Of a stretch of 64,000 bases of DNA, positions 18,910-59,659 are shown piece after piece (the first letter of the stretch is position 1; each line of letters starts with the position of its first letter). The notes beneath the pieces were generated by a model. The model saw only the letters and a list, made by a program, of their open reading frames with translations, was not told the origin of the DNA and made no database searches. The stretch is taken from the sequence record PP993145.1. The stretch is one strand, 5' to 3'. The DNA is from Escherichia phage phiP4. The position numbers and the translations under genes were made by a program.

Positions 18910-20123
18910 TCTTTATCTCCCTCGGTGGAACCTTGAGGTCTACCACCTTCTTGACCGGATACACCTGTTGCAGAACCAGCAACGTTAGCAGGAATACGAA
19001 TCTTATTCATCTGCTCATCATCTAAAGGTTCAAGGTTCAGCTCTAAACGAGCTTCATTACCAGTTATAATACCATTATTAACCAATGAGGTTAAATGTTT
19101 AGCCTCAGATTCTTTATCTGGTGTTAATGCAGCTACTTCCTTAGTATTAGGAGTAATCTTATAACCAAAAAAGAAAGTAAGAGAACTAGTCAGTTTGTTC
19201 AGCATAGGGATGATAGTCATGTAATAGAACAGCTCGATATTTGGTCGAATGTTCGCATTATTACCACCATCAAGTAGCACTTGCGGAACACCAAAGGCTA
19301 GACAGATGGATTTATTAAATCCTTCAATGTCTTCCTTAAAGTCTAGATCTTTAAAAGAGGATATTTGGGAGTACGGTTTAGCTTTCATACCACCATCTAG
19401 AATCAGGACAGAGGACTGACCAGTACTAGGATTATAATCTAGTTGTAATTCTTCTTGTTTACGCTCACGCAATTTCTTGTTCAGGATTTCATCCGTCTCA
19501 AGAATAAGACCAATCACGGTTCCGTTATCAAGGAATTTCTCTTTAAAGTTAAGCATCTTAGAACGCTTCTCAAGAGAATCAATAACAGTAGCAACACGAG
19601 ATTGTCCAGAAATTTGAGAATTTGTGCCACACACGTAACTGTTATCCTTTATAAAGATAATCTCATCTACGCGATAGTCTATCTGATTATTAAATATAAA
19701 TTTTTTGATAAACTTATTGGCATCTGCCTCTACTTGCACTAGTGCAGCAGGGACATGGTAAAGTGCTGTGCCATCCCAATAGATGTATGCACAACCTTCA
19801 AAAAGTAGGTCAGTGACTACAAGTCTACGGAATGTGCTTATATCCATGAATGGATTAGGTCGTACATTTAAGAGAGTGTCTAGAGTCTTTGTCTTGATGC
19901 CATTAGCATACGTGACAATATTATATTTATCTCCGACAGTATAAGAACACTCCGCCGCACTATCTATAACCATATTAGCAGTTCTATTGAGAATCTCAAT
20001 TTTACTGTAGGCTTGTCCAGTGGTAAAAGGCTTACGGTTAGTGCGATGACTAACTGGTTCCATGTCTCTTATAATACGTTGACCCGGATTTAGCTTTTCA
20101 GTAATCCAGCTTTTAAAACCCAT
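18906..20123 (-). CDS. portal protein (pb7-like), 405 aa
   Basis: Position between terminase and protease; size. Confidence 0.75.
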   Translation of the reverse strand: MGFKSWITEKLNPGQRIIRDMEPVSHRTNRKPFTTGQAYSKIEILNRTANMVIDSAAECSYTVGDKYNIVTYANGIKTKTLDTLLNVRPNPFMDISTFRRLVVTDLLFEGCAYIYWDGTALYHVPAALVQVEADANKFIKKFIFNNQIDYRVDEIIFIKDNSYVCGTNSQISGQSRVATVIDSLEKRSKMLNFKEKFLDNGTVIGLILETDEILNKKLRERKQEELQLDYNPSTGQSSVLILDGGMKAKPYSQISSFKDLDFKEDIEGFNKSICLAFGVPQVLLDGGNNANIRPNIELFYYMTIIPMLNKLTSSLTFFFGYKITPNTKEVAALTPDKESEAKHLTSLVNNGIITGNEARLELNLEPLDDEQMNKIRIPANVAGSATGVSGQEGGRPQGSTEGDKE

Positions 20124-20647
20124 TATAAGAACCTTGCGAATCCTGATTTTGTTTCAGTCTTGACTTGTGTCTTTTCTTGAGGATTCTGTAATTTGTCTTT
20201 CTGCTTTTGAACCCACACTTTTTGCTTATTAGCAGAAAATAAGGGAGGTTCTTTTGTGTAAACCTTATGTAATAATTGGTGATGGTGTACACAAAGGGTA
20301 ACAGTGTCTTCTACTAGCTCATGCCTATATCGATCATAGAATGCCGTCCTATTTGAGAGGACTGTTTCTTCGTCAGTGAAATCCAATTGGAGTTCTTTAG
20401 CAAATTTTTTAACTAGTAGAGACACCGTATGGTAATGATGAAGTTCTAATTCTTCAGCACAACCGCAGATAGCACATTGAGAGTCTTTTTTATATTGACT
20501 TTTTATTCCGTCTCTCATAAGGGATATAGCATCGCGTTTATATTTTACATTGCTTGCCATAGTGTTCTCCTCAACTGTATGAATATAGTATACATAATCG
20601 TATCGAATTTGTAAAGGGGATTTTAAAATGCAGGAATGGGATACCAA
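20123..20647 (-). CDS. HNH endonuclease-like protein, 174 aa
   Basis: Cys-x2-Cys and HH motifs (CAICGCAEELELHHYH); sits between terminase and portal. Confidence 0.5.
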   Translation of the reverse strand: MVSHSCILKSPLQIRYDYVYYIHTVEENTMASNVKYKRDAISLMRDGIKSQYKKDSQCAICGCAEELELHHYHTVSLLVKKFAKELQLDFTDEETVLSNRTAFYDRYRHELVEDTVTLCVHHHQLLHKVYTKEPPLFSANKQKVWVQKQKDKLQNPQEKTQVKTETKSGFARFL

Positions 20648-20674: not shown

Positions 20675-21991
20675 TTATTTACCACGGGAAATAGAGTAAA
20701 TTCCATAGCGCAGCGCATCACAAAGGTGAGAGTTAGCATCATGACGTGGTTTTTCACGTGATAATTTTTCTTCACCTTCTTGGAAATCCCACTTATAGTT
20801 CTGCAATGCATGAATTAATGAGGAACATGAAGCGTCTACAATAATCTTACCCTGCTGGAATAGCGCTTGCAAGCATGCTAGGCCATCTAGGACAGATTTC
20901 TTAGCGGGAGCAGAGGCAATTTCATGTTCATAAGCTAAGTCCTGACGGAACTGAGCTGCTGCAGAGTCAACGAAGATACGATCTACATTATAACGATCTA
21001 TACAGTGCTGAATATACGCAGCATGCTGAGCTGTGGTTTTCTCAGCCTGCTGGTACTCTTCTAATACATAGTAAGTATCTGTATCATAGTGATACTTGAT
21101 AGTAAGAACTGCTGTAGGATCACGATAACCAACGTCAATGCCAAGCAACGTTTCGAATGCTTCATCATCTTTAAAGAAGTGACGCATACCTTTAAGGTCT
21201 TTAACATGATCAATAGCATTAAAGGTATCAAAGATCTGACCTTCGAATACAGAGAAGTCAGCCTCGTATTCTTGGCGGAAGTAGTTTTTACTAACAGTAC
21301 GACGTGCCTCCTCAATATCATTCAGGTCAGCACGTGGATTATCACGATATGTACCATGAATAGATACCCAGTTAGGCAACGTATCATCAAACCCATAGGC
21401 ATAAAATTCTTTAAACCAGTTACCACCACGAGGAGTAGAGATAAACAGAGCCTTAGAATTAGGTTTATCTAGGGTAGGACGCAACTGAACTCTAAAGGCA
21501 TCACCACCTACATCGGAAATTGCCGCCTCGTCAAAGATGATAAAGTCATATGAACGTCCAACCGCGGAGTCGGCCTGCGCCGCGGAAGCTAGTTTAAACA
21601 GCGAGCCGTTTGCCAGCTCAATCTCTTTATCTTTAGCATTCTCACGTTCGGTTTGCAATCCATACTTCTTAATAAGACCACGAATCTGAGACCATCCGAT
21701 GTTGGCTAGTGAATAGTTAGGAGCAACTACTAGTACTTTTACATTAGGTTCCAGCAATTTTAGGAACCCAAGCGTATATGCTATGAAGGATTTACCTACA
21801 CGGCGTGATACACACGCCGTTACAAAACGATGTCTAGGATCTTCTAGCGCATTGATAATTGCTATTTGAGGACCATTAGGTGTAATACCTTCTTGTGCTA
21901 GTATTCCCGAAACAGGTAGACGAAAGAAACGTTTATCTATTCCGAAATCTATAACATCTACTGTATTAACGTAGGGTCTTGATACTTCCAT
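20675..21991 (-). CDS. terminase large subunit, 438 aa
   Basis: Walker A-like RRVGKS, C-terminal nuclease-like region, position upstream of portal. Confidence 0.8.
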   Translation of the reverse strand: MEVSRPYVNTVDVIDFGIDKRFFRLPVSGILAQEGITPNGPQIAIINALEDPRHRFVTACVSRRVGKSFIAYTLGFLKLLEPNVKVLVVAPNYSLANIGWSQIRGLIKKYGLQTERENAKDKEIELANGSLFKLASAAQADSAVGRSYDFIIFDEAAISDVGGDAFRVQLRPTLDKPNSKALFISTPRGGNWFKEFYAYGFDDTLPNWVSIHGTYRDNPRADLNDIEEARRTVSKNYFRQEYEADFSVFEGQIFDTFNAIDHVKDLKGMRHFFKDDEAFETLLGIDVGYRDPTAVLTIKYHYDTDTYYVLEEYQQAEKTTAQHAAYIQHCIDRYNVDRIFVDSAAAQFRQDLAYEHEIASAPAKKSVLDGLACLQALFQQGKIIVDASCSSLIHALQNYKWDFQEGEEKLSREKPRHDANSHLCDALRYGIYSISRGK

Positions 21992-22473
21992 TACTTCTTA
22001 CCTCCAGTAGCTAGGGAAGTAATTAAGTCCATGTAGTTTTGATCCCCAGCTCCAGCAATAATATTATTCTGGATATTGGTCTGATTAGCAGGAGCACGGA
22101 CGGCAGCTTTAGCTTTTTCTAGTTCCACCATCATTTTCATCTCTTCCATCTTCATTTTATGTGCCTTCCAGAGAATATCCATAATATCCTGGTCAGAACC
22201 CATGCCAGTTTCTTCCAATTCCTCTAGCTTACGTTTAATAACTTCATCTAGAACACCGAACAAACGATCTCTATTACGGAAACCACTTTCCATAAAAATA
22301 TCGTTTAAGTAGTTCTTAACCTCACTACGATTCATAATATCTCGGAAAGCAATTTCGGACATTCCAAGACTACGTGCGGCAGAAGGCACATCACTGCCAC
22401 ACTGTAAATAAGCTTCAATTACATCCATCCCTTCAGGGGACATAAGATCTGGTACTAATACATCATTTGCCAT
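21991..22473 (-). CDS. terminase small subunit (putative), 160 aa
   Basis: HTH-like N-terminus, start overlaps stop of large terminase gene region. Confidence 0.45.
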
Positions 22474-22483: not shown

Positions 22484-24271
22484 TTAGGTAAGGCGTTGAA
22501 CTGTTACTCGTAGTCTCGGTAAGAAAACTGCAGCGGATTCATTTGCATGTATAACTACACCTAACTCAGCGTTACCGTTACCCAAATTTTTAATAGTATA
22601 AATAAATCCACTTCTAGTGAATGTTAAATCATCAGGTCGACTAGCCCACTGCTGTGTATAGCTATAAGAAGCTGTAGTATGGAAGGGCACCAACTGATTG
22701 GGTGGTAAAGTTAATATTTGATGGAATACCCCGTCACCACCTGTATAACTTTGTTGTCTTCTACCTTGCACCTGCCACGCAGTACCACCATATGTTCGTA
22801 TAGGACCTCCTGCTGTATTAAGATTTCCGGCAACTACTTCAGTAGTTAGGATTACTGTAGAGTTTGCATTAGGTAATCCAAGACCTACTGTAGATAGGGC
22901 TACATACTTATTCCCTGTACCTGGATAAGAGGGGTTTATGTCATCACCTATGTAAGTACTAGCTACGTTATTTGGTAGTAATCGTAAAGGTACTGAAGAA
23001 GGTCCCCAAACAACTCCATGCTCATTACCTATAGTATTATTATTGGAATTAACATACCATTGTTTACCAGCAGAGAATTTGTAAATACTTATCTGAGACT
23101 TAGAACCTCCATAATTTACAGGCGACCATAAAGAACCTTTGTTAGAGCCTACAATTTCACATCTTGCTGTAGTATCTCCAAAGACTCCGGTATAAGCAAC
23201 GTTATTACCAATATATTCCATATCAGGTCTAGATGATAAGTTACCAAAAGCATTCTGATTAATGAATTTGTAACTGGTGTTTGGAAGACTAACACCTTTT
23301 ATAGTAAAGTTAGAAGGACTTATACGAATATCAGACCCAGTAAAAGGATTACTAGCAACGCTCATACTACCATTAGAGTATCTAAGATTCAGCACATACC
23401 AAATAACTTTGGTCGGAGTAATATTATAGCTATCTTGAACATACTTCTTCTTTGCTGCCTGTGATGCTAAATTAGATGTCGAGCCCCTACATACATAAAC
23501 CTTATTCGGATAGGTCGAAGAATTATATAGTACACTCACATTACTTGGCGTAGTGCCTTTTTTACCCGCGTATCCACGTATATTGGAGTTACAAACATAA
23601 AACCAATTATGACCCCTTTTCCCAGCCCCTATAGGGGCTTGCCAATTAGGGTGCCAGAAGTCAACATTACCACTATTTATAGATACTTTAGACGCCCCAG
23701 CTGGAAATCCTGCTAAAGTCCATGCTCTACCGATAGCTTCACCGGCATATGCCCCTCCAGGTCTGTATAAGTTAAATCCAGAAGCCTGTGATATAGTACC
23801 GCCAGTACCCTGTCTAGCTATTGACTCTTCATGGCCCAGACTAGAGTTATAAGTATAAGTACCATGTGCTAAACTATTACCAGATGCAAAAGCTGACGTA
23901 AGACCTAATTCAGCACCAGCCCTACCAATAGGGGGGTCTTCAAAAAATGCAAGAAATTGTCCAACCTGGGATTGAGTACCATTAAGAAAAGCTCTATGTG
24001 TACCATTTATCTCAACAGCGGTTAGTATAACCCTACCAGGATCATTACTCTTTAGGTTAGCTATTACAGAAGGCATCTGACATACAAAAAACCCATTTCC
24101 AGCGCTACTTAATGCACTTTCATAAGTACTCTCAACTAGAACAAAGGGCATATCAGAGTGAAATATAGTATTGGCATTAGGAGTTTTGTGAGCATTAATA
24201 TCCCCACCATTCACTTTGTTTAGTGATAATACAGTTTTACCATCACTATATTTTCCAGCGAAAAAACCCAT
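22484..24271 (-). CDS. receptor-binding tail protein (pb5/Oad-like), 595 aa
   Basis: N-terminus MGFFAGK...LSL...GGD.N.H..P...TIFHSDM resembles T5 pb5; divergently paired with llp-like gene. Confidence 0.65.
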
Positions 24272-24356
24272 ATAATCTCCTATTATAAAAATGTATTTGC
24301 TTTCATCTCTCTATTTTGCTATAATATATTCATAAATTAGAAATGGAGAGATAAAT

Positions 24357-24623
24357 ATGAAAAAGTTTGTGATTGCACTAGTTGCCACAGTTATGTTATC
24401 TGGTTGTGCACCTGCTCCCAAACCATTTTGTACGGGATTTGTAAAATCTTTTGGTGGTGCGGGAGAAGAACATTACGGTCTCAAGGTTCAAAAAGTTCGT
24501 ATTAAGGGAGATCGCTTTCCAGTAGTACAGCTCCGTACTAAGTTTGGATGGTGGGATCTCAGTCAGTTTGACCTTAAATATGGTGATTGTAAATTTAAAC
24601 TAGAACAATCTAATTACTTGTAA
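24357..24623 (+). CDS. llp: Llp-like lipoprotein (lytic conversion / receptor-blocking), 88 aa
   Basis: Signal peptide with lipobox LSGC; divergent from RBP gene as in T5. Confidence 0.55.
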   Translation: MKKFVIALVATVMLSGCAPAPKPFCTGFVKSFGGAGEEHYGLKVQKVRIKGDRFPVVQLRTKFGWWDLSQFDLKYGDCKFKLEQSNYL

Positions 24624-25017
24624 TTAGTATAAAACAAAAAGACATCCAAGTAAACTAAATTTTTTATTTCTTGGATGGTGTACTGGCAGAAACCACTATG
24701 TAAGAAAATTAGAAGTCCTTCTAGAAAGTCACGAGTATGGTTGGTTATGCACAAATTATAAAATATTTATTGGAGCACGAAATATATGTCAAACAAAAGA
24801 AAGAACAGACGCGGAGAAGTGTACAATAGCTGGATAAATAGTTTTGGGTTCGGAACTATCTTATTCCTAGTCTTCGTAGGTTTTTGGTTAGCAGCTATGG
24901 TGGGGTGGATTTAATGGAATGGGTAATTATTGCACTGCTGGGGATTGTGATTATTGGGCAGTGTATTCTAGATAATCACTTAGCTAGAATTGAAACCTTA
25001 CTATCGGAGAAACGTAA

Positions 25018-25212
25018 ATGATGGAAGCGGCAGTTACACTAATAGTAATATTAGTCTGGGTAATCCTCATTGTCTCTCGTATCGTGTATCTCCGCCTAAA
25101 AACTCTAGAGGCTCAGGTAAAACAACAACAAGTTATTATAGAAAAGCTAGTACTACTGCAACGTTGTGATAGCACCCGTATTCTGCAAATTGAGAGGGAA
25201 TTAGATGTTTAG
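25018..25212 (+). CDS. small membrane protein, 64 aa
   Basis: Single hydrophobic helix; at left edge of repeat block. Confidence 0.3.
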   Translation: MMEAAVTLIVILVWVILIVSRIVYLRLKTLEAQVKQQQVIIEKLVLLQRCDSTRILQIERELDV

Positions 25213-25450
25213 TATTATAATTGCTTTTATTATCGGGATACTCGCGGGGGTTTTCGGGACGACTGCGGCAATCAATAAGCACCGGAAATATATTGCGGGA
25301 GTGTCGCGGGAGATTGCGGAAAGGGAGCGGAAGTTTGACGAGAAACGTGCGGAGTTTGAGAGGGAATGGTCGGATGGATCTCGGGCGTCGCGGAAGAGAT
25401 TCCGTGAGTTCAGACCAGAACACAGGTTTGATGACCCTTCTATGCGCTAA
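25205..25450 (+). CDS. small membrane protein, 81 aa
   Basis: N-terminal TM helix then charged tail. Confidence 0.3.
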   Translation: MFSIIIAFIIGILAGVFGTTAAINKHRKYIAGVSREIAERERKFDEKRAEFEREWSDGSRASRKRFREFRPEHRFDDPSMR

Positions 25451-25601
25451 TTTGACTTTTGCCAAATTTCATAAGATTACACATGGAGGTGTGTCCAGTG
25501 GCCTCCCGGATGAGAATGAGTCTCATTACCGCCTGGTACTTAGCAAGCTAATAGTCACGATATGCAATGATAACATACCGTGACTATTTCAATTTTAATT
25601 A

Positions 25602-26336
25602 TTACGCGACTTTTAATTTCTCAATATATTGTTGCGGGCTGCAACTATATTCTGCGCGTTCTTCCTCGGTCATACTTTCCCAACATAATTTCAATCGGTC
25701 CGCTAGGAACTGATAATCATTATCATCATCAAGCGATTCATCAATAAAGGTTCCGCCTATCAATGCCACGCCGATTGATAGAATATCATTAACGGCTTGC
25801 GCATCCAGCGTTTTAAATCCGTATGATGCCGCCGCCGCCAATACTCCTTTATGGTCATCAATCATTGTAAAATCAGCGTTCGGGTATAATTGTTTGAATA
25901 GCTCGAAATAATAACTTTTATATACTGCATCCTTGCTGTGGTATATTTCGCTAACCTTATCAGCCGTAAAATATTTGTGAAGTGTATCGCGGGAAAATAC
26001 ACGGATATTGGTATCCCCACGCCCGCGCAATCCTTGTTTGCGTAGGAAGTAATAATCTGACTTGCTCATCAGGCGAGCGGTGCAAATAATGTTTAAAGTA
26101 TTTGCGTCATTCATGCATTGGCGCATATATTCCACCAAAGGCAATAAAGTATCTTGCATTATTAAATGATGCTTGCAAGCCTCGTTTTTGTATTTATTTA
26201 AATCTAAATTCCCGTCGCTATCAAAGCAAGGCGCTACACGATGGAATGAATTAACGATAGTGCCATCAAGATCCCAAATCATGACGCGGGAAATATGCGG
26301 AAAATTACGGGTAATATTCGTTTTAACTTGATTCAT
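25602..26336 (-). CDS. dmp: 5'-deoxyribonucleotidase (HAD family), pre-early
   Basis: HAD motif I WDLDGTIVNS; start chosen at internal Met with GGAG RBS (244 aa); ORF-track start is 26378. Confidence 0.65.
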   Translation of the reverse strand: MNQVKTNITRNFPHISRVMIWDLDGTIVNSFHRVAPCFDSDGNLDLNKYKNEACKHHLIMQDTLLPLVEYMRQCMNDANTLNIICTARLMSKSDYYFLRKQGLRGRGDTNIRVFSRDTLHKYFTADKVSEIYHSKDAVYKSYYFELFKQLYPNADFTMIDDHKGVLAAAASYGFKTLDAQAVNDILSIGVALIGGTFIDESLDDDNDYQFLADRLKLCWESMTEEERAEYSCSPQQYIEKLKVA

Positions 26337-26416
26337 TTTGTTACGTTCTCCAATAAAGGGATCTAGTTTATCCAGCATTGCCCGCTATTTATAAGCGGGC
26401 AATAATAAATCAACTA

Positions 26417-26881: not shown

Positions 26882-28546
26882 TTACGCGAAAAATTTGCCG
26901 TTTTTAAAGTCAATCAAAGTGCGCTGCCCGTTCGCATAGGTAATTAAATGCGTTTGCGTCCAACTTGACGCGCCAACGTTGTAACCCATATCCAGACTAC
27001 CAGCAACGCCAGCGGTATAAACGCCGCCGTAAATGCTGGCGGTGTGGGTGTGCCCCGTGTTTAATTTGCCCAATTTCTTAAACTGCTTCGGATTACCACG
27101 GCTGCCGTTAATGCCGTTGTGACCGTGTACGCCGCATTCAATGCCTGCAATTTTAAATGATTGGTCAGTGGTCAGGAAAATTGCGTTAAACTCGCAACCT
27201 GCGACGTCACGCAGCGCATAATCCAGCACGTTGAAAGTATCGTCATGATTACCGATTGCCGCGTAAATCGCAGCATTAAGGCGGTGATATAGTTCCGCAT
27301 TGGCTGGATCGTCTTTAATGTTAGCATTGCGATCATCAAGCCAACGGGATAACGCCAAATCGTGGTTTGATTCGACAATGATCGTTTGACTAAAATCGCG
27401 CTCCATTGACTCCAGCACGCGCCCGGTATCGATCAGATCATCCAGAACTTTATCACGTCCGGCTGCATACTGTTTCGCTAGGAATACACCAGAGGCGCGA
27501 TTATGATGATTGCGCGATGTAAAATCATGCACGTCATGCACAAACTGATATTTAGGCTTGAGAATATCAAGCAAGCTGTTTTCGCCAGCCCATGACGCTG
27601 CGGCGCACTCCTCATCTAATTTCTCGGCGTGTACGTCGCCATATTGCAAGCCTAAAACATGCCCCGACGTTTCAAAACATCCGGCGGGAGTGGCGCAAAT
27701 ATTCAAATCGTAAAACATGCCGCTTTCGTCCATCGTTTCAAGCTGGCGAACAAAAAATTCCCCGTCCTCGTCGAACTCAACAATCAGCGCACCGTAATTA
27801 TGCAGCGCCTCCGCTTTTTGCCCTGCTTTTTGCTGAATGTAGTTTTTGAGCGTTGCCGTTCCGGTTGAGTACATGCGGCGTACTACTTCACCTTTGAGAG
27901 CTGGCACGCTTTCAGCGGTGATTTTAGCGTGACCAATTGCCAGACCTTCCAGATTAAGCGCGGTTGCAGTTTCAGCAAATCCAGATAGCGGATAATCTGC
28001 CGTTGGCAAAACATTAATTTCAGCCATGAAAGCAAAACGGCGATTGTTTAAAAACACGTTTTTGCTGCAAATATATTTATCAAACGCGGAATCATATTTT
28101 ACACCGTCTGCGCCTTCTCCGTTCTGAAAACCGTTTTTATTATAAATATACTTAGAAACAAGCAAATCAGCGCCGATAAATTTAGCATATTGTTCAAGCG
28201 AGGCTAAAAAGTTTTTATGCGGGAAAGTATTGTTCTGAATTGATGTAATAATAAAGCGTTTGCCCTGTTTTACTTCCCACTGTTCCACCGTGCTGGAAAT
28301 AATTCCAGCCGCCTCGGGGCGCTCGTCGTTTTTAATGGCTTTTGCTACTTTCGCCGCTTTTGGTTTTGCTGGTTTATTTGCTTCCAGCCAATCACAAATC
28401 GCGGTCGAGTGTTTCGTTGTATCGTAGACCGCTTTTGATATATCGTCGCAGACTTCCAGCTTAGTAGCGCGCAGACGTTTACCGTAGAAATTAAAGTCAG
28501 CGGCCAGCTTCAGGATAACGGTTTGTTTTTCTGCGGAAATAATCAT
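26882..28546 (-). CDS. A1: A1 protein (calcineurin-like metallophosphoesterase), pre-early
   Basis: GDVHAE and GNHD metallophosphatase motifs; start set at internal Met with GGAG RBS (ORF track extends to 28636). Confidence 0.6.
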   Translation of the reverse strand: MIISAEKQTVILKLAADFNFYGKRLRATKLEVCDDISKAVYDTTKHSTAICDWLEANKPAKPKAAKVAKAIKNDERPEAAGIISSTVEQWEVKQGKRFIITSIQNNTFPHKNFLASLEQYAKFIGADLLVSKYIYNKNGFQNGEGADGVKYDSAFDKYICSKNVFLNNRRFAFMAEINVLPTADYPLSGFAETATALNLEGLAIGHAKITAESVPALKGEVVRRMYSTGTATLKNYIQQKAGQKAEALHNYGALIVEFDEDGEFFVRQLETMDESGMFYDLNICATPAGCFETSGHVLGLQYGDVHAEKLDEECAAASWAGENSLLDILKPKYQFVHDVHDFTSRNHHNRASGVFLAKQYAAGRDKVLDDLIDTGRVLESMERDFSQTIIVESNHDLALSRWLDDRNANIKDDPANAELYHRLNAAIYAAIGNHDDTFNVLDYALRDVAGCEFNAIFLTTDQSFKIAGIECGVHGHNGINGSRGNPKQFKKLGKLNTGHTHTASIYGGVYTAGVAGSLDMGYNVGASSWTQTHLITYANGQRTLIDFKNGKFFA

Positions 28547-28635
28547 AATAATAAACTCCATTAAAGGGATAAGGTTAATAACGGCAATATTGCCAAATAT
28601 AACGCCTCCAATAATAGGCGTTATAATTTGCAACA

Positions 28636-28881
28636 TTAATTTAAAGGCATCAGGCTAGAACTAACACCACAAACAACGGCGGCAATAAAACAAATCAGGC
28701 CCAAACGCTTCGCTAACTTAGATTTGCGTTTAAAATAATACGAATCTAAATCATTTTGAAAATATGCGAACAATAACGAGGCCGCCATAATAAATAAGCC
28801 TAGAATCAACGATTCAGTAGGGTAAAAGATCATTTTAATAACTCCAGTTAAAGGGAAATTATAGTGGGGAATAATCCCCAC
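28636..28881 (-). CDS. small membrane protein, 81 aa
   Basis: Two predicted TM helices. Confidence 0.4.
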   Translation of the reverse strand: MGIIPHYNFPLTGVIKMIFYPTESLILGLFIMAASLLFAYFQNDLDSYYFKRKSKLAKRLGLICFIAAVVCGVSSSLMPLN

Positions 28882-51511: not shown

Positions 51512-51549
51512 AGCTGCTCCTAAATTTAGCTATCTCTAGCTATTTTAAT

Positions 51550-51625
51550 GGTAGTTAGTAGTGGATTTGAACCACTGTAATCGCTCCGTATGAAGGAGGT
51601 GCATAACCGCTCTGCCAACTAACTA
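51550..51625 (-). tRNA. tRNA-Met/Ile2 (anticodon CAT)
   Basis: Hand fold: acceptor AGTTAGT/ACTAACT, T-arm AGTGG-TTCAAAT-CCACT, loop TTCATAC, CCA encoded. Confidence 0.65.
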
Positions 51626-51720
51626 TTATGTTTTACTAGACTAAGTAAGTATTCTTTATACTCTTTAGTCCAATTAGCTTTTTTAAACTTTCCTGGACGC
51701 ATAGTCTTAATTCCTAAATT

Positions 51721-51797
51721 TGGTACTCCGGGAGGGATTTAAACCCCCGATCTCTCGGTTATCAGCCGAGTGCTTTAGATCGCTAAGCTACCGAAGT
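51721..51797 (-). tRNA. tRNA-Ile (anticodon GAT)
   Basis: Anticodon stem CTCGG/CCGAG loop CTGATAA; CCA encoded. Confidence 0.7.
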
Positions 51798-51798
51798 A

Positions 51799-52026
51799 TT
51801 AACATTTTACAGCAGAACGTTTGCCATTTCTAGGCGCACCTGGAAGTCGTGCACGTTCTGCCATTATTCGCTTAATCTTTGAGATATTTTCTAGTGTTTG
51901 TTTTTCAGGCTTAATACCTGAAACACTACACCACTGACTACCATCCCATGCGGTAATGATCATAACACCATTACTCATGATCTTTTCTGTGAAAGTAATC
52001 CTCATTATAGCAACTCGTCTAAGCAA
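51799..52026 (-). CDS. hypothetical protein, 75 aa
   Basis: ORF between tRNA genes. Confidence 0.3.
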   Translation of the reverse strand: MLRRVAIMRITFTEKIMSNGVMIITAWDGSQWCSVSGIKPEKQTLENISKIKRIMAERARLPGAPRNGKRSAVKC

Positions 52027-52298
52027 GAGGTATATTTAAGTTTACCATCTTTATCTACTTTGATTTCGACTTCCGCTCGTGGTACTTGACGAACTACACC
52101 ATGAATCATCTTATAGCGAATGCCTTTAGCTGGTTCATGCTCTTTTGGAAATACTTGCTTAACCGTTACTACCTTGAAACCCTCACGCGGTGTTAACACT
52201 ACTACTTGATCACCTTTTTTGATCTTCCAAGAGCTAGGAAATTCATAGGTATAGCGTTGACCACCAGTTTGGAACACAACAGAAAGATAACGTTTCAT
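52005..52298 (-). CDS. hypothetical protein, 97 aa
   Basis: ORF behind promoter 52329-52357. Confidence 0.4.
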   Translation of the reverse strand: MKRYLSVVFQTGGQRYTYEFPSSWKIKKGDQVVVLTPREGFKVVTVKQVFPKEHEPAKGIRYKMIHGVVRQVPRAEVEIKVDKDGKLKYTSCLDELL

Positions 52299-52328
52299 TT
52301 GGTTTCCCTCTCATTAATTTATATAAAT

Positions 52329-52357
52329 ATTATAACAAGAAATAAGAGAGAAAGCAA
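52329..52357 (-). promoter_or_regulatory. sigma70 early promoter (TTGCTT-17-TATAAT)
   Basis: Hexamers read on minus strand. Confidence 0.55.
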
Positions 52358-52365
52358 ATGAATTT

Positions 52366-52560
52366 TTAATAGAGTTTAGTCACTTCATAAACTATACTAC
52401 GAGATTCTTTATTACGTTCTATTAAATTAGCGTATGCTTTTTCAGCTTCGTTTTTAGTATTAAAGTCTATAACGTGGGAGGTATTAGCTCTGTTTGATTG
52501 ACTATACCAGATAACTACTAGGAGTTTAAACATACTAGTCCTTAAATTGGTGCTGGGCAC
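52366..52560 (-). CDS. hypothetical protein, 64 aa
   Basis: ORF; 3' end overlaps tRNA by a few nt. Confidence 0.3.
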   Translation of the reverse strand: MPSTNLRTSMFKLLVVIWYSQSNRANTSHVIDFNTKNEAEKAYANLIERNKESRSIVYEVTKLY

Positions 52561-52634
52561 AGGATTCGAACCTGCAGTGGGATTACTCCTCCTGATTACA
52601 AATCAGGTGCATTCAACCATTCTGCCAACCCAGC
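52548..52634 (-). tRNA. tRNA-Thr-like (anticodon TGT), 87 nt with 15-nt variable arm
   Basis: Acceptor GCTGGGT/GCCCAGC, A73, stem CCTGA/TCAGG loop TTTGTAA, GGA-GTAA-TCC hairpin in variable region. Confidence 0.5.
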
Positions 52635-52799
52635 AGAACCCGTTATTTCAACGGGATTTCTTTTTCAATAACAGGAGACTTATCAGTCATAACTGTCATT
52701 GCCATTTGTTGTAGAAATTCAAAGGTGAAGGCTACACGTTCTTCACCAATCTCTACTTCTACACGTTTCTTTTGTTTATCGATCTTGACTTTTAGGTTA

Positions 52800-53021
52800 T
52801 CAGCCATCTTCGGGTTCTCGTTGCTGTGCTACTTCTAGCCAGTCTGGTAGAAGAAACTTTGTACGAAATTCTTCGTAAGTTTCTTTGGGATAAAAGCTAA
52901 AACCTCCTTTCTCATCATTCAGGATAACAGAGCCGTCCGTTTGTTCGTATGCTCGGTATGTTTCTCCAATAACAATAACTCGTTTATCGGTACTTTTATT
53001 ACGAAACTCAAAAACGTGCAT
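52800..53021 (-). CDS. hypothetical protein, 73 aa
   Basis: ORF. Confidence 0.35.
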   Translation of the reverse strand: MHVFEFRNKSTDKRVIVIGETYRAYEQTDGSVILNDEKGGFSFYPKETYEEFRTKFLLPDWLEVAQQREPEDG

Positions 53022-53037
53022 AACGTTTCCTTAAAGT

Positions 53038-53113
53038 TGGAGCGGCTAGAGGGAATCGAACCCTACTCAGCGAGGCTTGGAAGGCCTGCGACACAACCCG
53101 TGTGCTTAACCGC
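53038..53113 (-). tRNA. tRNA-Gly (anticodon TCC)
   Basis: 76 nt, T-loop TTCGATT, anticodon loop CTTCCAA, CCA encoded. Confidence 0.6.
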
Positions 53114-53121
53114 TTATTATT

Positions 53122-53197
53122 TGGCTGGAGAAGGAGGAATCGAACCTACCATTAACGGAGTCAAAGGCCGTTGTGCTAACCGTTACACTACTCTCCA
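53122..53197 (-). tRNA. tRNA-Gln (anticodon TTG)
   Basis: 76 nt, loop CTTTGAC, acceptor TGGAGAG/TTCTCCA. Confidence 0.65.
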
Positions 53198-53203
53198 ATT
53201 GTT

Positions 53204-53279
53204 TGGCTGGGATGCCACGGATCGAACGTGGAACCTTCGGAGTCAGAGGCCGACGATCTGCCAATTGATCTACATCCCA
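53204..53279 (-). tRNA. tRNA-Gln (anticodon CTG)
   Basis: 76 nt, loop CTCTGAC, acceptor TGGGATG/CATCCCA. Confidence 0.65.
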
Positions 53280-53288
53280 AGAATGCTA

Positions 53289-53525
53289 TTAGCTAGATGC
53301 TGTTTCTACTGGCTGAGAAACAGCAGGCTGTTCTAACGTATCTGGTGCTGATACAGAGAAAAGAGCTTGTAATGCTGCAATATCACGCTCGTAAGTATCA
53401 ATACGAGTAGTAAGAGTATCTACCATCTGTTTATGGTAGGATAAGTTATTCTGAGATTCATCTCGAAGAGTTTGCAGTTCTGCAAGACGTGTTAACATAA
53501 TTTCACTAATTAAAGCATTACTCAT
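53289..53525 (-). CDS. hypothetical coiled-coil protein, 78 aa
   Basis: ORF. Confidence 0.35.
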   Translation of the reverse strand: MSNALISEIMLTRLAELQTLRDESQNNLSYHKQMVDTLTTRIDTYERDIAALQALFSVSAPDTLEQPAVSQPVETASS

Positions 53526-53715
53526 TTGTTTCTCCTAAGTTTTCCTGTTCTTCTAAACGTTTGCCTTCATGATCTACTCGAATAACTCCGCATCCTTCGC
53601 AAATCACAACTGCACCATAACCTTCTTTGACCTCAGCTTCTGTAATCAAACCAGAAAGATCACCAGTATCTCTGCCCCACATATCAATGGAGCATTGTTT
53701 GCAGAAATCAGCCAT
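53518..53715 (-). CDS. hypothetical zinc-ribbon-like protein, 65 aa
   Basis: CxxC...CxxC pairs. Confidence 0.35.
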   Translation of the reverse strand: MADFCKQCSIDMWGRDTGDLSGLITEAEVKEGYGAVVICEGCGVIRVDHEGKRLEEQENLGETNE

Positions 53716-53740
53716 ATTTTATTTCCTATTTAAGTTAATT

Positions 53741-53817
53741 TGGGGTGGCTAGTGGAATTCGAATCCACATAGGCCTGATTCACAATCAGGATCATTAACC
53801 AATTATGATATAGCCAC
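53741..53817 (-). tRNA. tRNA-His (anticodon GTG)
   Basis: Stem CCTGA/TCAGG loop TTGTGAA, acceptor GTGGCTA/TAGCCAC, discriminator C. Confidence 0.75.
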
Positions 53818-54380
53818 AATTGAAAACTCGCAGGGTTAGCGAAACCTTCCTCAATTAGCATGTTCTAGAATACTAATCAAGTTATCTCCTATTGCACGCA
53901 GCTCAAGACGAGTACGAATTTTCAATTGTGGCGGCTCTCAGAAACTCTTCTACTCTAGCTTTAGCAGCTTACTCCCGAACGCATGTCGGGGAAGTCTTAC
54001 CAAGAGCATCAAATAGCACCGTTACACTTTGAGCCATAGATGTATCAAGAAGCAGAAGGATTTGAACCTTCACGAGATAGACCAGTTATCTCAGCCGCTT
54101 TATGAGGTATGTTGCAGGGAGTGGATGTTCCCTATAAACCTTTTAGGCAGCCCCGTCTACCGATTCCGGCATACTTCAAGAATTTTTTATAAACCAGCAG
54201 AAGCCTCATTTAAAGCATCAACAATAGCTTCACGTTGGGTCATTCCATACCCGGTGGAATCTAGGTGTGGCAAATAAGCCATCCATCCCTTATCTGTTTC
54301 ATGAAGACATGCTTTAAATTTTTTACCATCCTTCATTGTTACAGTAACTGTTTTGCTCATAAGATTTCCTTATAGTTAAT

Positions 54381-54470
54381 TGGCAGAAGATAATGGAGTC
54401 GAACCATCACCGTATCGCTACAGCGGGCTGGTTTTCAAGACCAGTTACGTACCACTACGTCCTATCTTCT
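54381..54470 (-). tRNA. tRNA-Ser (anticodon TGA), class II
   Basis: 90 nt, stem CTGGT/ACCAG loop CTTGAAA, long variable arm. Confidence 0.7.
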
Positions 54471-54483
54471 AGTATTTATTATA

Positions 54484-54831
54484 CTAATAGTCACTCGTAC
54501 TAGTGAAGTTTTCTACTTTTCCACAGATTTTACAAGTCCTACGATGATAGTAGGTAATTTTTACTTTAGACCAGCCATCGTGATCATTACCTAGGTTTTC
54601 TGTTACTCCCCAAGTATGAGAACACTCATTTTCAATTTGCTTAGTAAGAGCGTTATAGCGAGTATAAAACTCCTCCTGAGCAATAGCAAATTCTTTCTGT
54701 AGTTTATCACGAGCAATAATAGCACGTTCCAGATATGTTAAATCAGGCATTCCAGCTTTTTCAGCAACATCTATAATCTTATCTTCATCTAAAGATGCTA
54801 AAAACTCTAGAGCTTTATCTTTTGTTAGCAT
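54484..54831 (-). CDS. hypothetical protein with C-terminal CxxC pair, 115 aa
   Basis: ORF. Confidence 0.4.
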   Translation of the reverse strand: MLTKDKALEFLASLDEDKIIDVAEKAGMPDLTYLERAIIARDKLQKEFAIAQEEFYTRYNALTKQIENECSHTWGVTENLGNDHDGWSKVKITYYHRRTCKICGKVENFTSTSDY

Positions 54832-54850
54832 TATTATTACCTCAAGTGTT

Positions 54851-54941
54851 TGGCGGAAGAGGAGAGATTTGAACTCTCAAGCCGTTTTACCAGTCAGCCA
54901 CTTTCCAAGCGGTTTTCGTCACCAATTCGATTTGCTCTTCC
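54851..54941 (-). tRNA. tRNA-Ser (anticodon GGA), class II
   Basis: 91 nt, T-arm GAGAG-TTCAAAT-CTCTC, loop TTGGAAA. Confidence 0.6.
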
Positions 54942-55043
54942 AATAATAAGATGATGCCTCTATCACACCAGGCAGTTACGCCTCGCTGGGATTCGAACCC
55001 ATTAAAACAGCTCAACCGAGATAGTAGGTTTAATTTACTCTGA

Positions 55044-55120
55044 CCATCAAATTTGGTGCGTGACAAGGGATTCGAACCCTCAAAACCCGACTTCTAAGGA
55101 CGGTATGTATGCCAATTCCA
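55044..55120 (-). tRNA. tRNA with anticodon TAG (Leu codon CUA) but class I short variable loop
   Basis: 77 nt, acceptor GCGTGAT/GTCACGC, A73, loop CTTAGAA, 5-nt variable GTTTT; covaries with tRNA at 59288. Confidence 0.55.
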
Positions 55121-55135
55121 TCAATCACGCATATT

Positions 55136-55214
55136 TGGTGGAGAATAACGGAATCGAACCGTTCTGATGTCCTCGGTGCAAGCGAGGTGTCCACTCCATG
55201 CAGACCCATTCCCC
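55136..55214 (-). tRNA. tRNA-Ala (anticodon TGC) with G3:U70
   Basis: Stem CCTCG/CGAGG loop CTTGCAC; G3-U70 wobble in acceptor. Confidence 0.75.
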
Positions 55215-55229
55215 AAATTCTTTAGTTTA

Positions 55230-55411
55230 CTAAGGCTATTAGCTCGGCGTAACTACAGCACCTTCGCTTCGAGCGGAAGGAACTGCGTCATCTCGCAAAC
55301 CCAATACACTATTCAGTTGCCGCTGAATCTAGTGGACCAATCTAGAACTTCTCCCGAATCAGGGGGATCGTGCTTTTTGGCAGCCAGTCCTAGGTCGAGC
55401 TAATACCTTAG
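55230..55411 (-). ncRNA. candidate structured small RNA closed by a 16-bp terminal helix
   Basis: 55230-55246 pairs with 55396-55411 (one bulge); internal hairpins; promoter at 55453-55481 on same strand; no credible ORF. Confidence 0.4.
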
Positions 55412-55452
55412 TGAACTATGATGAGGATTTCTCCTCATCAATTTATATAAAT

Positions 55453-55481
55453 ATTATAACAAGAAATTAAGCATCAAGCAA
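55453..55481 (-). promoter_or_regulatory. sigma70 early promoter (TTGCTT-17-TATAAT) upstream of ncRNA candidate
   Basis: Hexamers read on minus strand. Confidence 0.55.
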
Positions 55482-55500
55482 CTGCGTTTTTTCTTGAAAT

Positions 55501-55579
55501 TGGTAGATCGCCTGGGACTCGAACCCAGAACCTTCCGATTAAAAGTCGGATGCTACTAAACCTATTGAGCTAGCGATCT
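55501..55579 (-). tRNA. tRNA-Lys (anticodon TTT)
   Basis: Stem TCCGA/TCGGA loop CTTTTAA, acceptor AGATCGC/GCGATCT. Confidence 0.7.
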
Positions 55580-55768
55580 ATTAGTAACCATTATACACTT
55601 CTTTAATAGAGTGGACTTTTAAGTAAGGGTGATTAGTACTAAACTCTACCATTACTTCATCCCAATTTTTACCATAATGAGCAAGTAAGGATTTTGATGT
55701 ATTCTTACCTAATCGTTTATCACTTACTACTAATCGAAATACTTTCATTTCGAAATCCTCTATTAAAA

Positions 55769-55846
55769 TGGAAGCGGGTGCAGGAATCGAACCTACCTCT
55801 TTCTAGCTTATGAGACTAGCGATCTCTACCAGAGATCTAACCCGCG
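55769..55846 (-). tRNA. tRNA-Met (anticodon CAT), C1-U72 mismatch
   Basis: Loop CTCATAA, acceptor CGCGGGT/ACCCGCT with unpaired 1-72. Confidence 0.6.
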
Positions 55847-55852
55847 ATTATT

Positions 55853-55928
55853 TGGTCAGTGCGGCAGGACTCGAACCTGCGACCCGAAGCATCCAAGGCT
55901 CCCACGCTACCAACTGCGCTACGCACTG
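55853..55928 (-). tRNA. tRNA-Pro (anticodon TGG)
   Basis: 76 nt, loop CTTGGAT, acceptor CAGTGCG/CGCACTG. Confidence 0.7.
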
Positions 55929-55959
55929 TTAATTTTTGTTAACTCACTTTATAAGATAT

Positions 55960-55988
55960 ATTATACAGAGAATTAAGCAGAATAGCAA
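55960..55988 (-). promoter_or_regulatory. sigma70 promoter (TTGCTA-17-TATAAT) driving tRNA-Pro/Met unit
   Basis: Hexamers read on minus strand immediately upstream of tRNA-Pro. Confidence 0.55.
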
Positions 55989-56380
55989 ATGAATTTTTAA
56001 TAAATTTACTTATTGTGTAGGCCACCTAGAGGCTATGAACCCCACGGCTGACAAAGAAGTTTGCGAGACTTCTCTTAAATGCCAGAATAGACCCGCCGAT
56101 CTATCGGAACCTACATAATAAGTAAACTTTATAGTGTCATTCTAGACAGGACTCGAACCTGTTATCACTTGTGCGGACTTACGAGAACCATTCTTTCACT
56201 CGAATCGAACGAGCTTCTGCCCTCGCCAAGCTGGTTTCCCCATCAACCACGCTAGAATGTTTGATTGTTTTCAGTGCAAGAGTCCGAGTCTTGGACACGA
56301 CCGCTTCGCAAGTACATAGGCAGCTTATCATGAGTCAGCACTTCCGAATTGCTAGCTCCGTGTTCTGCACTGAAATTTTA

Positions 56381-56728
56381 TTAGTTTAACCGTAAAGTAT
56401 TATCTACTTCACCATTAATTGTTCGGCATTCTTCTGGGATTGCCGGGGTAGCCTTATATTCCCACCACTCAGCACCATCATATTCCCCACGTTCTAACCA
56501 AGTTCCATCGGCAAACCATACATTACCATAAAGTAATTGTCCACCGTATCCAGAATCATATTCAAAGTCTAGGTTATTAAGAAAATCCTCAATATCTTCT
56601 TCTGTATAACCTAAAGGTAATACCCAAACTTTTTTATCCCCATAATACCCGAATTCTATTTTAATACACTTAACTTCAGAATTAGTATTTTTTAAGGCAA
56701 GTAACAACTCTTCTTTAGCATTACGCAT
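56381..56728 (-). CDS. hypothetical protein, 115 aa
   Basis: ORF. Confidence 0.4.
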   Translation of the reverse strand: MRNAKEELLLALKNTNSEVKCIKIEFGYYGDKKVWVLPLGYTEEDIEDFLNNLDFEYDSGYGGQLLYGNVWFADGTWLERGEYDGAEWWEYKATPAIPEECRTINGEVDNTLRLN

Positions 56729-56753
56729 AATATATTCTCATACTGAATTAATT

Positions 56754-56830
56754 TGGCGCGACCGATGGGATTCGAACCCACATTCTCTCCCGTGACAGGG
56801 GAGTACCATTACCAAGCCAGCCCCGGTCGC
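56754..56830 (-). tRNA. tRNA-Asp (anticodon GTC)
   Basis: Stem CTCCC/GGGAG loop CTGTCAC, acceptor GCGACCG/CGGTCGC. Confidence 0.75.
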
Positions 56831-56839
56831 ATGATCTGT

Positions 56840-57025
56840 TTATTCAGCTTTGAGTTTTTCAATAGCTGCATTAAGTTCTTTAAGAAACTCTTTTCGTACA
56901 TTAAGACGATTGAGACTTACTAGTATATCATGTTTAAGTTCTTCGATGTATTTCTTCTCAACTTCAATATTGTTGATAGTGCTATCACGATGAACTTCTA
57001 ACTGTGCAATTACATTCTTGGACAT
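56840..57025 (-). CDS. hypothetical coiled-coil protein, 61 aa
   Basis: ORF. Confidence 0.3.
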   Translation of the reverse strand: MSKNVIAQLEVHRDSTINNIEVEKKYIEELKHDILVSLNRLNVRKEFLKELNAAIEKLKAE

Positions 57026-57126
57026 GCTTATTTCCTCAGTTATTAATGAAAATGGTATCTGTGGCTGAATTCGATGTCAGCAATGATAGCTGGTTGGCTA
57101 CCGGTTTACTTAACTCTACACAGAAT

Positions 57127-57209
57127 TTGGCGGGCCGTGTAGGATTCGAACCTACGTTGTCTTTCGACATGGATTAACAGTCCACCGCCAAACCGCTTGG
57201 CTAACGACC
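57127..57209 (-). tRNA. tRNA-Asn-like (anticodon GTT), 83 nt with 13-nt GNRA-capped variable arm
   Basis: Anticodon arm GGACTGTTAATCC as in E. coli tRNA-Asn, G73, Ser/Tyr-like D-arm AGCCAAGCGGTTTGGC, variable GTC-GAAA-GAC. Confidence 0.5.
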
Positions 57210-57362
57210 CTAAATTTATATTGCTGACTAGGATTTTCACCTAGACGGAGTTAGCACCGTAGCGTGTAGCGGCATACCTCTCCAAACCGTGCCTCATCTT
57301 TCAATTACGGAGACAGTGTTCCTACGCGTGCCTGAATTGATTTAACAATTCTTTCAGCAAAT

Positions 57363-57438
57363 TGGACGACCGCATGAGATTTGAACTCACATAAAAAGGA
57401 TTTGCAATCCTTCGCCTAAGCCATTCAGCCAACGGTCG
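57363..57438 (-). tRNA. tRNA-Cys (anticodon GCA)
   Basis: Stem AAGGA/TCCTT loop TTGCAAA. Confidence 0.7.
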
Positions 57439-57505
57439 ATTTATTATCTTTCATAACGTGCAGCTACATGGTCGGAACCACAACACTTAAATCTAACTAA
57501 TCGTT

Positions 57506-57748
57506 TCATTTAACACGCTCCGGTAGATCTTCTAGTTTATATTCAGTAGCCACATTAGCAGCATCTAAAAGTAATCCCATGTGTTTAAGGATTTTAGTGA
57601 TAGATTCGCCTTTGGCTTCTTCTACGAAAGAACGTAGATGAACAAAGTCAATTCCACCGTCCATACCAGAGAAAATATTTAGTAAGCGAAGCATTACCAG
57701 CTTACGTTCATTCAATTCTTGTTCTGTCATGTTGCTTCTCCAGTTCAA
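57506..57748 (-). CDS. hypothetical protein, 80 aa
   Basis: ORF behind promoter 57760-57788. Confidence 0.4.
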   Translation of the reverse strand: MNWRSNMTEQELNERKLVMLRLLNIFSGMDGGIDFVHLRSFVEEAKGESITKILKHMGLLLDAANVATEYKLEDLPERVK

Positions 57749-57759
57749 TTTATATAATT

Positions 57760-57788
57760 ATTATACAGAACTTTTGGAAACTAAGCAA
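57760..57788 (-). promoter_or_regulatory. sigma70 early promoter (TTGCTT-17-TATAAT)
   Basis: Hexamers read on minus strand. Confidence 0.55.
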
Positions 57789-58068
57789 CTACATTTTTTA
57801 AGAATTTGATGCCTTTCTTTTTCTTCTTATATTTCCACGTTAAGGGATTCTGTCGATTATGAACGCTTGAGATCTTCGTCTCGTCAAAGTTCTTCAATAT
57901 CATGTAATCACAAGATAATTGTTCTAGTGGAATGTGATCACCGTCAAAAGCGTATACATAAGGCTGTTGACTAGCACGATAATGATAGACTTTGTTAATT
58001 CTACGTTTCAGCGACTTATCCGCGCAGTAAATAAAGAAGTTTTCAGGATGCATCAGCAGCTCCTTCAA
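57781..58068 (-). CDS. hypothetical protein, 95 aa
   Basis: ORF. Confidence 0.35.
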   Translation of the reverse strand: MKELLMHPENFFIYCADKSLKRRINKVYHYRASQQPYVYAFDGDHIPLEQLSCDYMILKNFDETKISSVHNRQNPLTWKYKKKKKGIKFLKNVVA

Positions 58069-58135
58069 TTTGGTGCACCCTGTTCGTATCGAACGAACCT
58101 CTCAAGCTCTTCAGGCAAGCGCTAATCCATCTCAG
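58061..58135 (-). tRNA. tRNA-Phe (anticodon GAA), U-U mismatches in anticodon stem
   Basis: 75 nt, D-stem GCTG/TAGC, loop CTGAAGA. Confidence 0.5.
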
Positions 58136-58142
58136 CTAAAGG

Positions 58143-58219
58143 TGCAAATTTTTGGCAAACCTACTAGGACTCGAACCTAGACCGTACGGTTTTGGAGACC
58201 GACATGCTGTCCAGTAACA
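58143..58219 (-). tRNA. tRNA-Trp (anticodon CCA), two U-U mismatches in acceptor stem
   Basis: Loop CTCCAAA as in E. coli tRNA-Trp; T-arm CTAGG-TTCGAGT-CCTAG. Confidence 0.5.
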
Positions 58220-58227
58220 CTCTAGGA

Positions 58228-58304: not shown

Positions 58305-58310
58305 CTAACA

Positions 58311-59651: not shown

Positions 59652-59659
59652 ATAGTCTC

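Follow-up and report, generated by a model that had tools for sequence, protein, structure and literature searches.

Which receptor is recognized through the pb5-like receptor-binding protein (RBP) and the divergently encoded lipoprotein found at positions 22484–24623 of the Escherichia phage phiP4 sequence (PP993145.1), and does this gene pair indicate that a receptor has been switched? The pair was analysed within a stretch of 64,000 nucleotides, referred to here as the window. The original prediction described a pb5-family RBP and an Llp-type lipoprotein that have both diverged from their T5 counterparts, which is borne out by identities of 30.5 % and 23 %, respectively. The accompanying statement that the RBP/Llp module tracks receptor choice in T5-like phages agrees with the literature (PMC8594841). 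However, the receptor switch that was considered possible is not seen in the window phage, as the pair corresponds to BF23 hrs/llp and the whole window is BF23-like; the term holds only for the long-known difference between BF23-type phages and T5. With a probability of approximately 0.95, judging from sequence comparisons, the locus represents a host-recognition module of the BtuB type in a BF23-like Tequintavirus, and no evidence contradicting this assignment was found. The gene pair is an already known one, namely the ordinary, well-studied hrs/llp module of BF23.

The gene pair and its neighbourhood

In agreement with the original prediction, the ORF map contains an ORF of 595 aa (22484–24271, minus strand) and one of 88 aa (24357–24623, plus strand). 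The RBP gene and llp are divergently transcribed, with an 85 bp promoter region between them. When the RBP/llp locus was compared by megablast with 50,697 phage records, 188 phage records matched at the DNA level, and 544 were matched at the protein level; with so many phage matches, neither ORF can be regarded as a chance ORF. The DNA of the locus is 97.9 % identical to that of the Salmonella phage Kenya-K16, approximately 96 % identical to those of SP3, ESCO30, Stp1 and SE11, and 91.6 % identical to that of BF23, both in the hrs/llp record (DQ097178) and in the complete genome (OR083247). Over its first 25 kb, the window shows 92.6 % nucleotide identity to BF23 and 95–96 % identity to the Salmonella phages Kenya-K16 and SE11, on which basis the window was assigned to a BF23-like Tequintavirus.

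The closest known system is Hrs (Oad)/Llp of BF23, in which the two proteins likewise measure 595 and 88 aa, the layout is also divergent and the intergenic region also comprises 85 bp. The flanks of the BF23 locus, consisting of terS, terL, small membrane ORFs and the terminal repeat, are as in the window. The differences from BF23 comprise 20 RBP substitutions, the Llp substitution A11T and a nucleotide divergence of 8.4 % at the locus, which is mostly synonymous. In Kenya-K16, SP3 and ESCO30 (vB_EcoS_ESCO30, a Tequintavirus), the RBPs are 99.5, 99.3 and 99.3 % identical to that of the window, respectively, and the locus DNA is 96–98 % identical.

The gene order at the locus (portal, HNH-like ORF, terL, terS, RBP, divergent llp, small membrane ORFs and terminal repeat) is that of BF23 and Kenya-K16, and the genes from portal to RBP, including the HNH-like ORF, terL and terS, are all located on the minus strand. 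The genes encoding the large (terL, 20675–21991, minus strand) and small (terS, 21991–22473, minus strand) terminase subunits occupy the positions annotated in BF23, Kenya-K16 and T5, with terS following the RBP gene at a distance of 10 nt. Comparison with the annotated loci of BF23, Kenya-K16, T5 and DT571/2 places the RBP gene on the late strand, immediately ahead of terS/terL, divergent from llp and near the right terminal repeat. Four small conserved ORFs of membrane or unknown type are located downstream of llp, at 24786–25450.

Part of this arrangement extends to phages with other receptors. The genomic position, the divergent layout and the promoter hexamers of T5 pb5 (Oad)/Llp are as in the window, although T5 uses the receptor FhuA, its pb5 is 45 aa longer and its Llp is 11 aa shorter. 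A pb5-family RBP of the FepA type is also encoded upstream of terS and terL in H8, where it was located in the unannotated draft as a 637-aa ORF. All features by which membership in the BF23-type module can be judged from sequence, i.e. homology, length, position, cluster, lipobox and promoter, were found at the locus.

The receptor-binding protein and its alleles

The tail-tip RBP (595 aa, 22484–24271, minus strand) was identified as a pb5-family member of the BF23 Hrs/Oad type, belonging to the BtuB cluster, from its ORF, global alignments, a phrog_4815 match and a match to T5 pb5 in the PDB. The profile phrog_4815 ('receptor binding tail protein') is matched over positions 1–650 of 650 with E=1e-267, and no model for the RBP was found in Pfam or NCBIfam. 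A phmmer search revealed homology to T5 pb5 over its full length (PDB 8b14_B/8a8c_B, E=8e-50, query residues 1–595 against 1–640). As had been predicted, the N-terminus is the part that most resembles T5 pb5, with 41 of 99 positions identical at residues 1–100 as compared to 43 of 170 at residues 101–280, and the protein is approximately 45 aa shorter (595 versus 640 aa).

The full-length homology to pb5 (E=8e-50), along with the N-terminal motif MxFFAGK...IFHSDM and the C-terminal QRLT that the two proteins have in common, could be read as the signature of a T5-like module (FhuA type) or an H8-like one (FepA type), with an iron-siderophore transporter as the receptor. Such an assignment is exceedingly improbable, and both types are effectively refuted by the identity comparisons. 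The global identity of the RBP to T5 pb5 is 30.5 %, with many gaps, its identity to the H8 RBP is about 29–32 % and that of Llp to T5 Llp is 23 %, as opposed to the 96.6 % identity between the window and BF23 RBPs. RBP cluster membership predicts the receptor (PMC8594841), and by sequence identity the window RBP groups with the proteins of the BtuB users BF23, DT57C and EPS7, apart from the FhuA and FepA clusters. Moreover, a search of 100 kb of the H8 draft yielded no homologue of either the window Llp or T5 Llp, and the Llp of DT57C, which is reported to be identical to the window-matching Llp of DT571/2, provides no protection against T5 (PMC4728585).

Within the BtuB cluster, global protein alignment yielded identities of 96.6 % (DQ097178; 20 substitutions, no gaps) and 96.8 % (OR083247) to BF23 Hrs, which is also 595 aa long. 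The RBP is 99.5 % identical to that of the Salmonella phage Kenya-K16 (592/595), 99.3 % identical to that of SP3 and 99.3 % identical (591/595) to that of ESCO30, whose propagation host was E. coli DH5a, so that three to four amino-acid differences separate it from each of these proteins. Its identity to the EPS7 homologue is 76.4 % (tblastn), and its global identity to the 586-aa RBP of DT571/2 is 71.0 %. The Hrs/Llp pairs of DT57C and DT571/2, phages shown by experiment to be BtuB-dependent, fall into the same BtuB cluster; the divergence of the DT571/2 RBP is concentrated in residues 101–280, where 100 of 176 positions are identical, and the DT571/2 Llp precursor is 100 % identical to that of the window. 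Near-identity to T5 pb5/Llp, the observation that the original prediction had set against itself, is indeed absent, but T5 proved to be the wrong reference, as the locus is near-identical to BF23. The alignments to pb5 homologues, ranging from T5 (30.5 %) and H8 (approximately 29–32 %) to the DT57C type (71 %) and BF23 (96.6–96.8 %), likewise confirm the divergence from T5 but do not support novelty.

The differences from BF23 are not evenly distributed along the RBP. Four of the 20 (G173R, G177A, E178K and I180M, given as window residue, position and residue in BF23 DQ097178) are located within residues 173–180. Among eleven 595-aa homologues, variation within this RBP subtype is densest at residues 161–200 and 241–260, the former segment being the most variable, and the two BF23 records (DQ097178 and OR083247) differ from each other at residues 170, 173 and 178. 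In a multiple alignment, F170 of T5 pb5 aligns with Y169 of the window RBP. F170 forms the tip of L2, a loop of pb5 that contacts FhuA (PMC9586334), and the substitutions at 173–180 fall beside the aligned position; on account of this correspondence the hot spot of variation is plausibly a receptor-contact loop, in a region where the alignment is only approximately 30 % identical. At the codon level, 145 synonymous and 20 non-synonymous differences separate the RBP gene from that of BF23, a ratio that is consistent with conserved RBP function.

These observations bear on the possibility that the window encodes a BF23-type RBP with shifted specificity, directed to a certain BtuB variant (e.g. 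that of Salmonella over that of E. coli) or to another TonB-dependent transporter. The 20 differences from BF23 Hrs with their cluster at 173–180, the high variability of residues 161–200, where the L2 tip of pb5 aligns to Y169, the predominance of Salmonella isolates among the nearest relatives and the absence of the exact RBP sequence from the public protein collection, as established by an exact-sequence search, would all fit such a shift. Nevertheless, it is considered very unlikely. Among the eleven homologues, the window RBP differs from all others only at S302, which is also lacking in ESCO30, and the alleles at the remaining variable sites are all present in other named phages, so that, S302 aside, the substituted positions all show a residue also found in another sequenced phage. 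RBPs with 99.3–99.5 % identity come from the Salmonella phages Kenya-K16 and SP3 as well as from ESCO30, for which E. coli DH5a served as the host, and the host range of BF23 itself includes E. coli as well as Salmonella (PMC10644984). Furthermore, DT57C, whose RBP is 71 % identical, still uses BtuB (PMC4728585), which indicates that the BtuB cluster tolerates far more divergence without a change of receptor, and the mature part of the cognate Llp is unchanged. A milder version, in which S302 and the G173/G177/E178/I180 stretch fine-tune the recognition of BtuB variants and thereby alter the Salmonella/E. coli host range relative to BF23, is similarly given little credence. If it were true, the RBP alleles would constitute a natural mutant series for mapping the Hrs–BtuB interface; no structure of BtuB in complex with an RBP or Llp of this type was found in PDB sequence searches.

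The lipoprotein and the llp promoter

The llp gene (24357–24623, plus strand) encodes the 88-aa precursor of a receptor-blocking (superinfection exclusion) lipoprotein of the BF23 type, as recognized from its ORF, its identity to the Llp proteins of BF23 and DT571/2 and its match to phrog_1119. The precursor is longer than T5 Llp (88 versus 77 aa), in accordance with the original prediction. Its lipoprotein signal peptide, MKKFVIALVATVMLSG (24357–24404, plus strand), carries the lipobox L-S-G-C at its end; Pfam LPAM_1 matches residues 1–18 (E=4.6e-5, 24.1 bits versus a cut-off of 20), and cleavage is predicted between MKKFVIALVATVMLSG and CA. The mature Llp (24405–24620, plus strand) consists of 72 aa, with an N-terminal acylated Cys, Ala at position +2 and further cysteines at positions 9 and 62, and is identical to mature BF23 Llp. 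According to the +2 rule, the Ala at this position, a residue other than Asp, suggests outer-membrane sorting of mature Llp.

In a global alignment, 87 of the 88 residues are identical to BF23 Llp, the sole difference being A11T, and since this position lies inside the signal peptide, the mature protein is 100 % identical to that of BF23. The precursor is identical to DT571/2 Llp at all 88 residues, and the exact Llp sequence is present in public databases on 50 contigs. A11T corresponds to a single G-to-A change at nucleotide 31 of llp. The occurrence of T11 together with DT57C-type RBPs could point to a recombination breakpoint between hrs and llp, as has been proposed for DT57C. However, llp is only 1 nt away from Kenya-K16 and SP3 but 5 nt away from DT571/2, so that the change to T11 arose on an llp background like that of Kenya-K16 and SP3. 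Such a breakpoint was therefore rejected, the module showing no sign of one, and the T11 allele is convergent and not inherited.

The identity to T5 Llp (77 aa) is much lower, at 23 %. Both are small lipoproteins of the same PHROG: the window Llp matches phrog_1119, 'Cor superinfection exclusion protein', over the full profile length (E=9.9e-26), as does T5 Llp (E=1.1e-19). The two proteins also have the KGDxFxV motif in common and display an equivalent cysteine pattern, at positions 1/9/62 of the mature window Llp versus 1/11/58 of T5 Llp, in which Cys11 and Cys58 form a disulfide (PMC9586334). The pairwise similarity of mature Llp to T5 Llp is marginal (z=2.4, with 149 of 5000 shuffles reaching the observed score). 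In Pfam and NCBIfam, the generic lipobox match is the sole one above cut-off, the NCBIfam Cor model scoring 15 bits, under its 31-bit cut-off. A search against PDB sequences returned chance-level matches only (E at least 0.19), among which T5 Llp did not appear, and a single-sequence AlphaFold2 model of Llp reached a mean pLDDT of 46.7, too low for use.

The signals required for expression of the two genes could be assigned within the intergenic region. The RBP gene is preceded by the Shine–Dalgarno sequence AGGAG (24277–24281, minus strand), located 5 nt upstream of the ATG and kept in all BtuB-type phages aligned; for llp, the corresponding sequence is GGAGAG (24345–24350, plus strand), which is also kept in the BtuB-type phages aligned. 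Alignment to BF23 places the llp promoter at 24297–24325 (plus strand), with a −35 element TTGCTT (24297–24302), a 17-nt spacer and the extended −10 element TGCTATAAT (24317–24325). These positions equal those of the −35 and −10 signals annotated in the BF23 record DQ097178, the −10 hexamer being TATAAT, and both hexamers are invariant across seven phages, namely the window phage, BF23, Kenya-K16, DT571/2, Bas33, NR01 and T5. Hence, llp is predicted to have its own sigma-70-type promoter, divergent from the RBP gene. A simple consensus promoter scan did not recover this promoter because its −35 element matches the consensus at only three of six bases, and the same simple scan returned 7 promoter-like sites, below the 9.9 obtained for shuffled sequence. 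No terminators were found by the simple promoter/terminator scan.

Predicted function and layout of the record

BtuB has been known as the receptor of BF23 since 1971, and BF23 hrs/llp was sequenced in 2006 (as cited in PMC10644984). In BF23, which infects E. coli and Salmonella alike, Hrs acts as the RBP and can functionally substitute for T5 pb5, and once infection has taken place, the receptor is blocked by Llp (PMC10644984). Mutations inactivating btuB gave resistance, and cloned DT57C llp, reported to be identical to that of DT571/2, lowered the plating of both BF23 and DT57C by a factor of more than 100 and left T5 unaffected (PMC4728585). The RBPs of Markadamsvirinae form three clusters (BtuB, FepA and FhuA) that predict the receptor, and the great majority of them target BtuB (PMC8594841). 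Literature and alignments together establish BtuB use for RBPs that are 71 % to 96.6 % identical to the window RBP. The BtuB specificity of the latter is inferred from its 96.6–99.5 % identity to characterized or closely related proteins, and a blocking function of Llp is suggested by DT57C llp, reported to be identical to that of DT571/2, whose product matches the window Llp at 88 of 88 residues. Taken together, the literature on BF23 and DT57C and the observed identities argue that the RBP binds BtuB and that Llp inactivates BtuB as a receptor.

The RBP gene is a late gene that is transcribed in the direction of terS and terL, and its product sits as a monomer on the tip of the central straight tail fibre. 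Homology with BF23 Hrs predicts that the RBP binds irreversibly to BtuB, the outer-membrane, TonB-dependent transporter of cobalamin (vitamin B12). In T5, four loops of pb5 enter the lumen of FhuA (PMC9586334), and surface loops of the window RBP may likewise enter the extracellular lumen of the BtuB barrel; binding would then trigger tail opening and DNA ejection. Llp would be exported and receive its acylation at Cys17, and sorting would take it to the inner leaflet of the outer membrane, where it is proposed to bind BtuB and render it unusable as a receptor. Such blocking would exclude superinfecting BtuB-dependent phages and could also prevent progeny from being wasted on cell debris.

The manner in which Llp may close the receptor is best illustrated by T5, for which both pb5–FhuA structures (8A8C and 8B14) and a crystal structure of FhuA–Llp (PMC9586334) are available. 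T5 Llp binds the periplasmic face and the plug of FhuA, upon which the extracellular loops EL7 and EL8 fold inward and occlude the pb5 site (PMC9586334). By analogy with the T5 Llp–FhuA pair, the only one for which this has been solved, the window Llp probably acts on the BtuB plug from the periplasmic side, so that binding to the periplasmic face and plug would close the extracellular loops allosterically. Transfer of the T5 mechanism is supported by the phrog_1119 assignment, the cysteine pattern and the KGDxFxV motif common to both Llp proteins; the marginal pairwise similarity of the mature proteins and the Cor score under its cut-off make this support weaker.

For annotation, the analysis allows BtuB to be predicted with confidence as the terminal receptor of the window phage; the locus raises no new biological question. 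Infected cells are predicted to be closed to other phages that depend on BtuB and probably also to E-group colicins. As loss of btuB would lead to cross-resistance to most T5-like phages, the assignment may also assist in the design of phage cocktails against Salmonella and E. coli.

The terminal-repeat boundary was placed at approximately 25492–25512 by alignment to the annotated boundaries of BF23 and Kenya-K16. Past this boundary, the window continues with the pre-early genes dmp and A1, followed by early genes, and 22 tRNA genes are located at 51549–63636. This succession of terminal repeat, pre-early and early genes indicates that the source record is a single-repeat (collapsed or permuted) assembly.

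Conservation of the receptor blocker and variation in the receptor-binding protein

Across phiP4 and many other phages, the receptor-blocking lipoprotein (Llp, 24357..24623, plus strand) is, judged by amino-acid identity, far better conserved than the receptor-binding protein (RBP, 22484..24271, minus strand) encoded divergently from it. Llp identity is 96.6–100 % in many phages whose RBPs are just 67–100 % identical to that of phiP4, including DT571/2, ESCO40 and IrisVonRoten. In a second group, Llp is approximately 67 % identical to the phiP4 protein and, among the phages common to both match tables, is paired with RBPs that are approximately 73–77 % identical (e.g. Stitch, GreteKellenberger and TrudiGerster).

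A comparison of eleven 595-aa BF23-type RBPs revealed amino-acid variation hot spots at residues 161–200 and 241–260, and the two deposited BF23 RBP sequences (DQ097178 and OR083247) differ from each other at residues 170, 173 and 178. The first hot spot (161–200) may correspond to a BtuB-contact loop, since Y169 of the phiP4 RBP aligns with F170 of the T5 FhuA-binding protein pb5, which forms the tip of contact loop L2.

The region between llp and the terminal repeat

Directly 3′ of the llp stop codon, the plus strand carries an 8-bp inverted repeat (CATCCAAG ... CTTGGATG, 24640–24680) with a T-rich loop of approximately 22 nt, which was not called in the terminator scan. The matching position in BF23 bears an annotated promoter described as ‘absent in T5 phage’. 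Further downstream, the interval separating llp from the terminal repeat contains four short overlapping ORFs (42, 45, 64 and 81 aa; 24786–25450, plus strand), which match the conserved PHROGs 8596, 6369, 5851 and 6447, of which phrog_6447 is labelled ‘membrane protein’ and the other three are of unknown function. The 42-aa form of the first ORF is shared with T5 and DT571/2, whereas BF23 has a 63-aa Orf1 in its place.

The terminal-repeat boundary was placed at 25492–25512 by alignment to the annotated repeat starts of BF23 and Kenya-K16, and the repeat includes dmp (25602..26378) and A1 (26882..28636), both on the minus strand. Because llp and the four small ORFs lead directly into the terminal repeat and then into the early genes, in a stretch reaching to approximately position 35 kb of the window, either the assembly PP993145.1 has the terminal repeat, about 10 kb long, collapsed into one copy, or the record is permuted.

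The portal–terL interval and the tRNA genes

Between the portal gene and the terminase large subunit gene terL lies an HNH-like ORF (20123–20560, minus strand; extendable to 20647 with a TTG start), which matches phrog_3497 (E=1.3e-69) and, weakly, an HNH endonuclease PHROG. Its BF23 homologue is annotated as ‘nicking endonuclease’. T5 possesses at the portal–terL position an extra endonuclease gene, T5.154, that is missing from both the window and BF23. The minus strand also carries a cluster of 22 tRNA genes (51549–63636), typical of T5-like phages, in which tRNA-Met, tRNA-Gln, tRNA-Leu and tRNA-Ser are each present twice.
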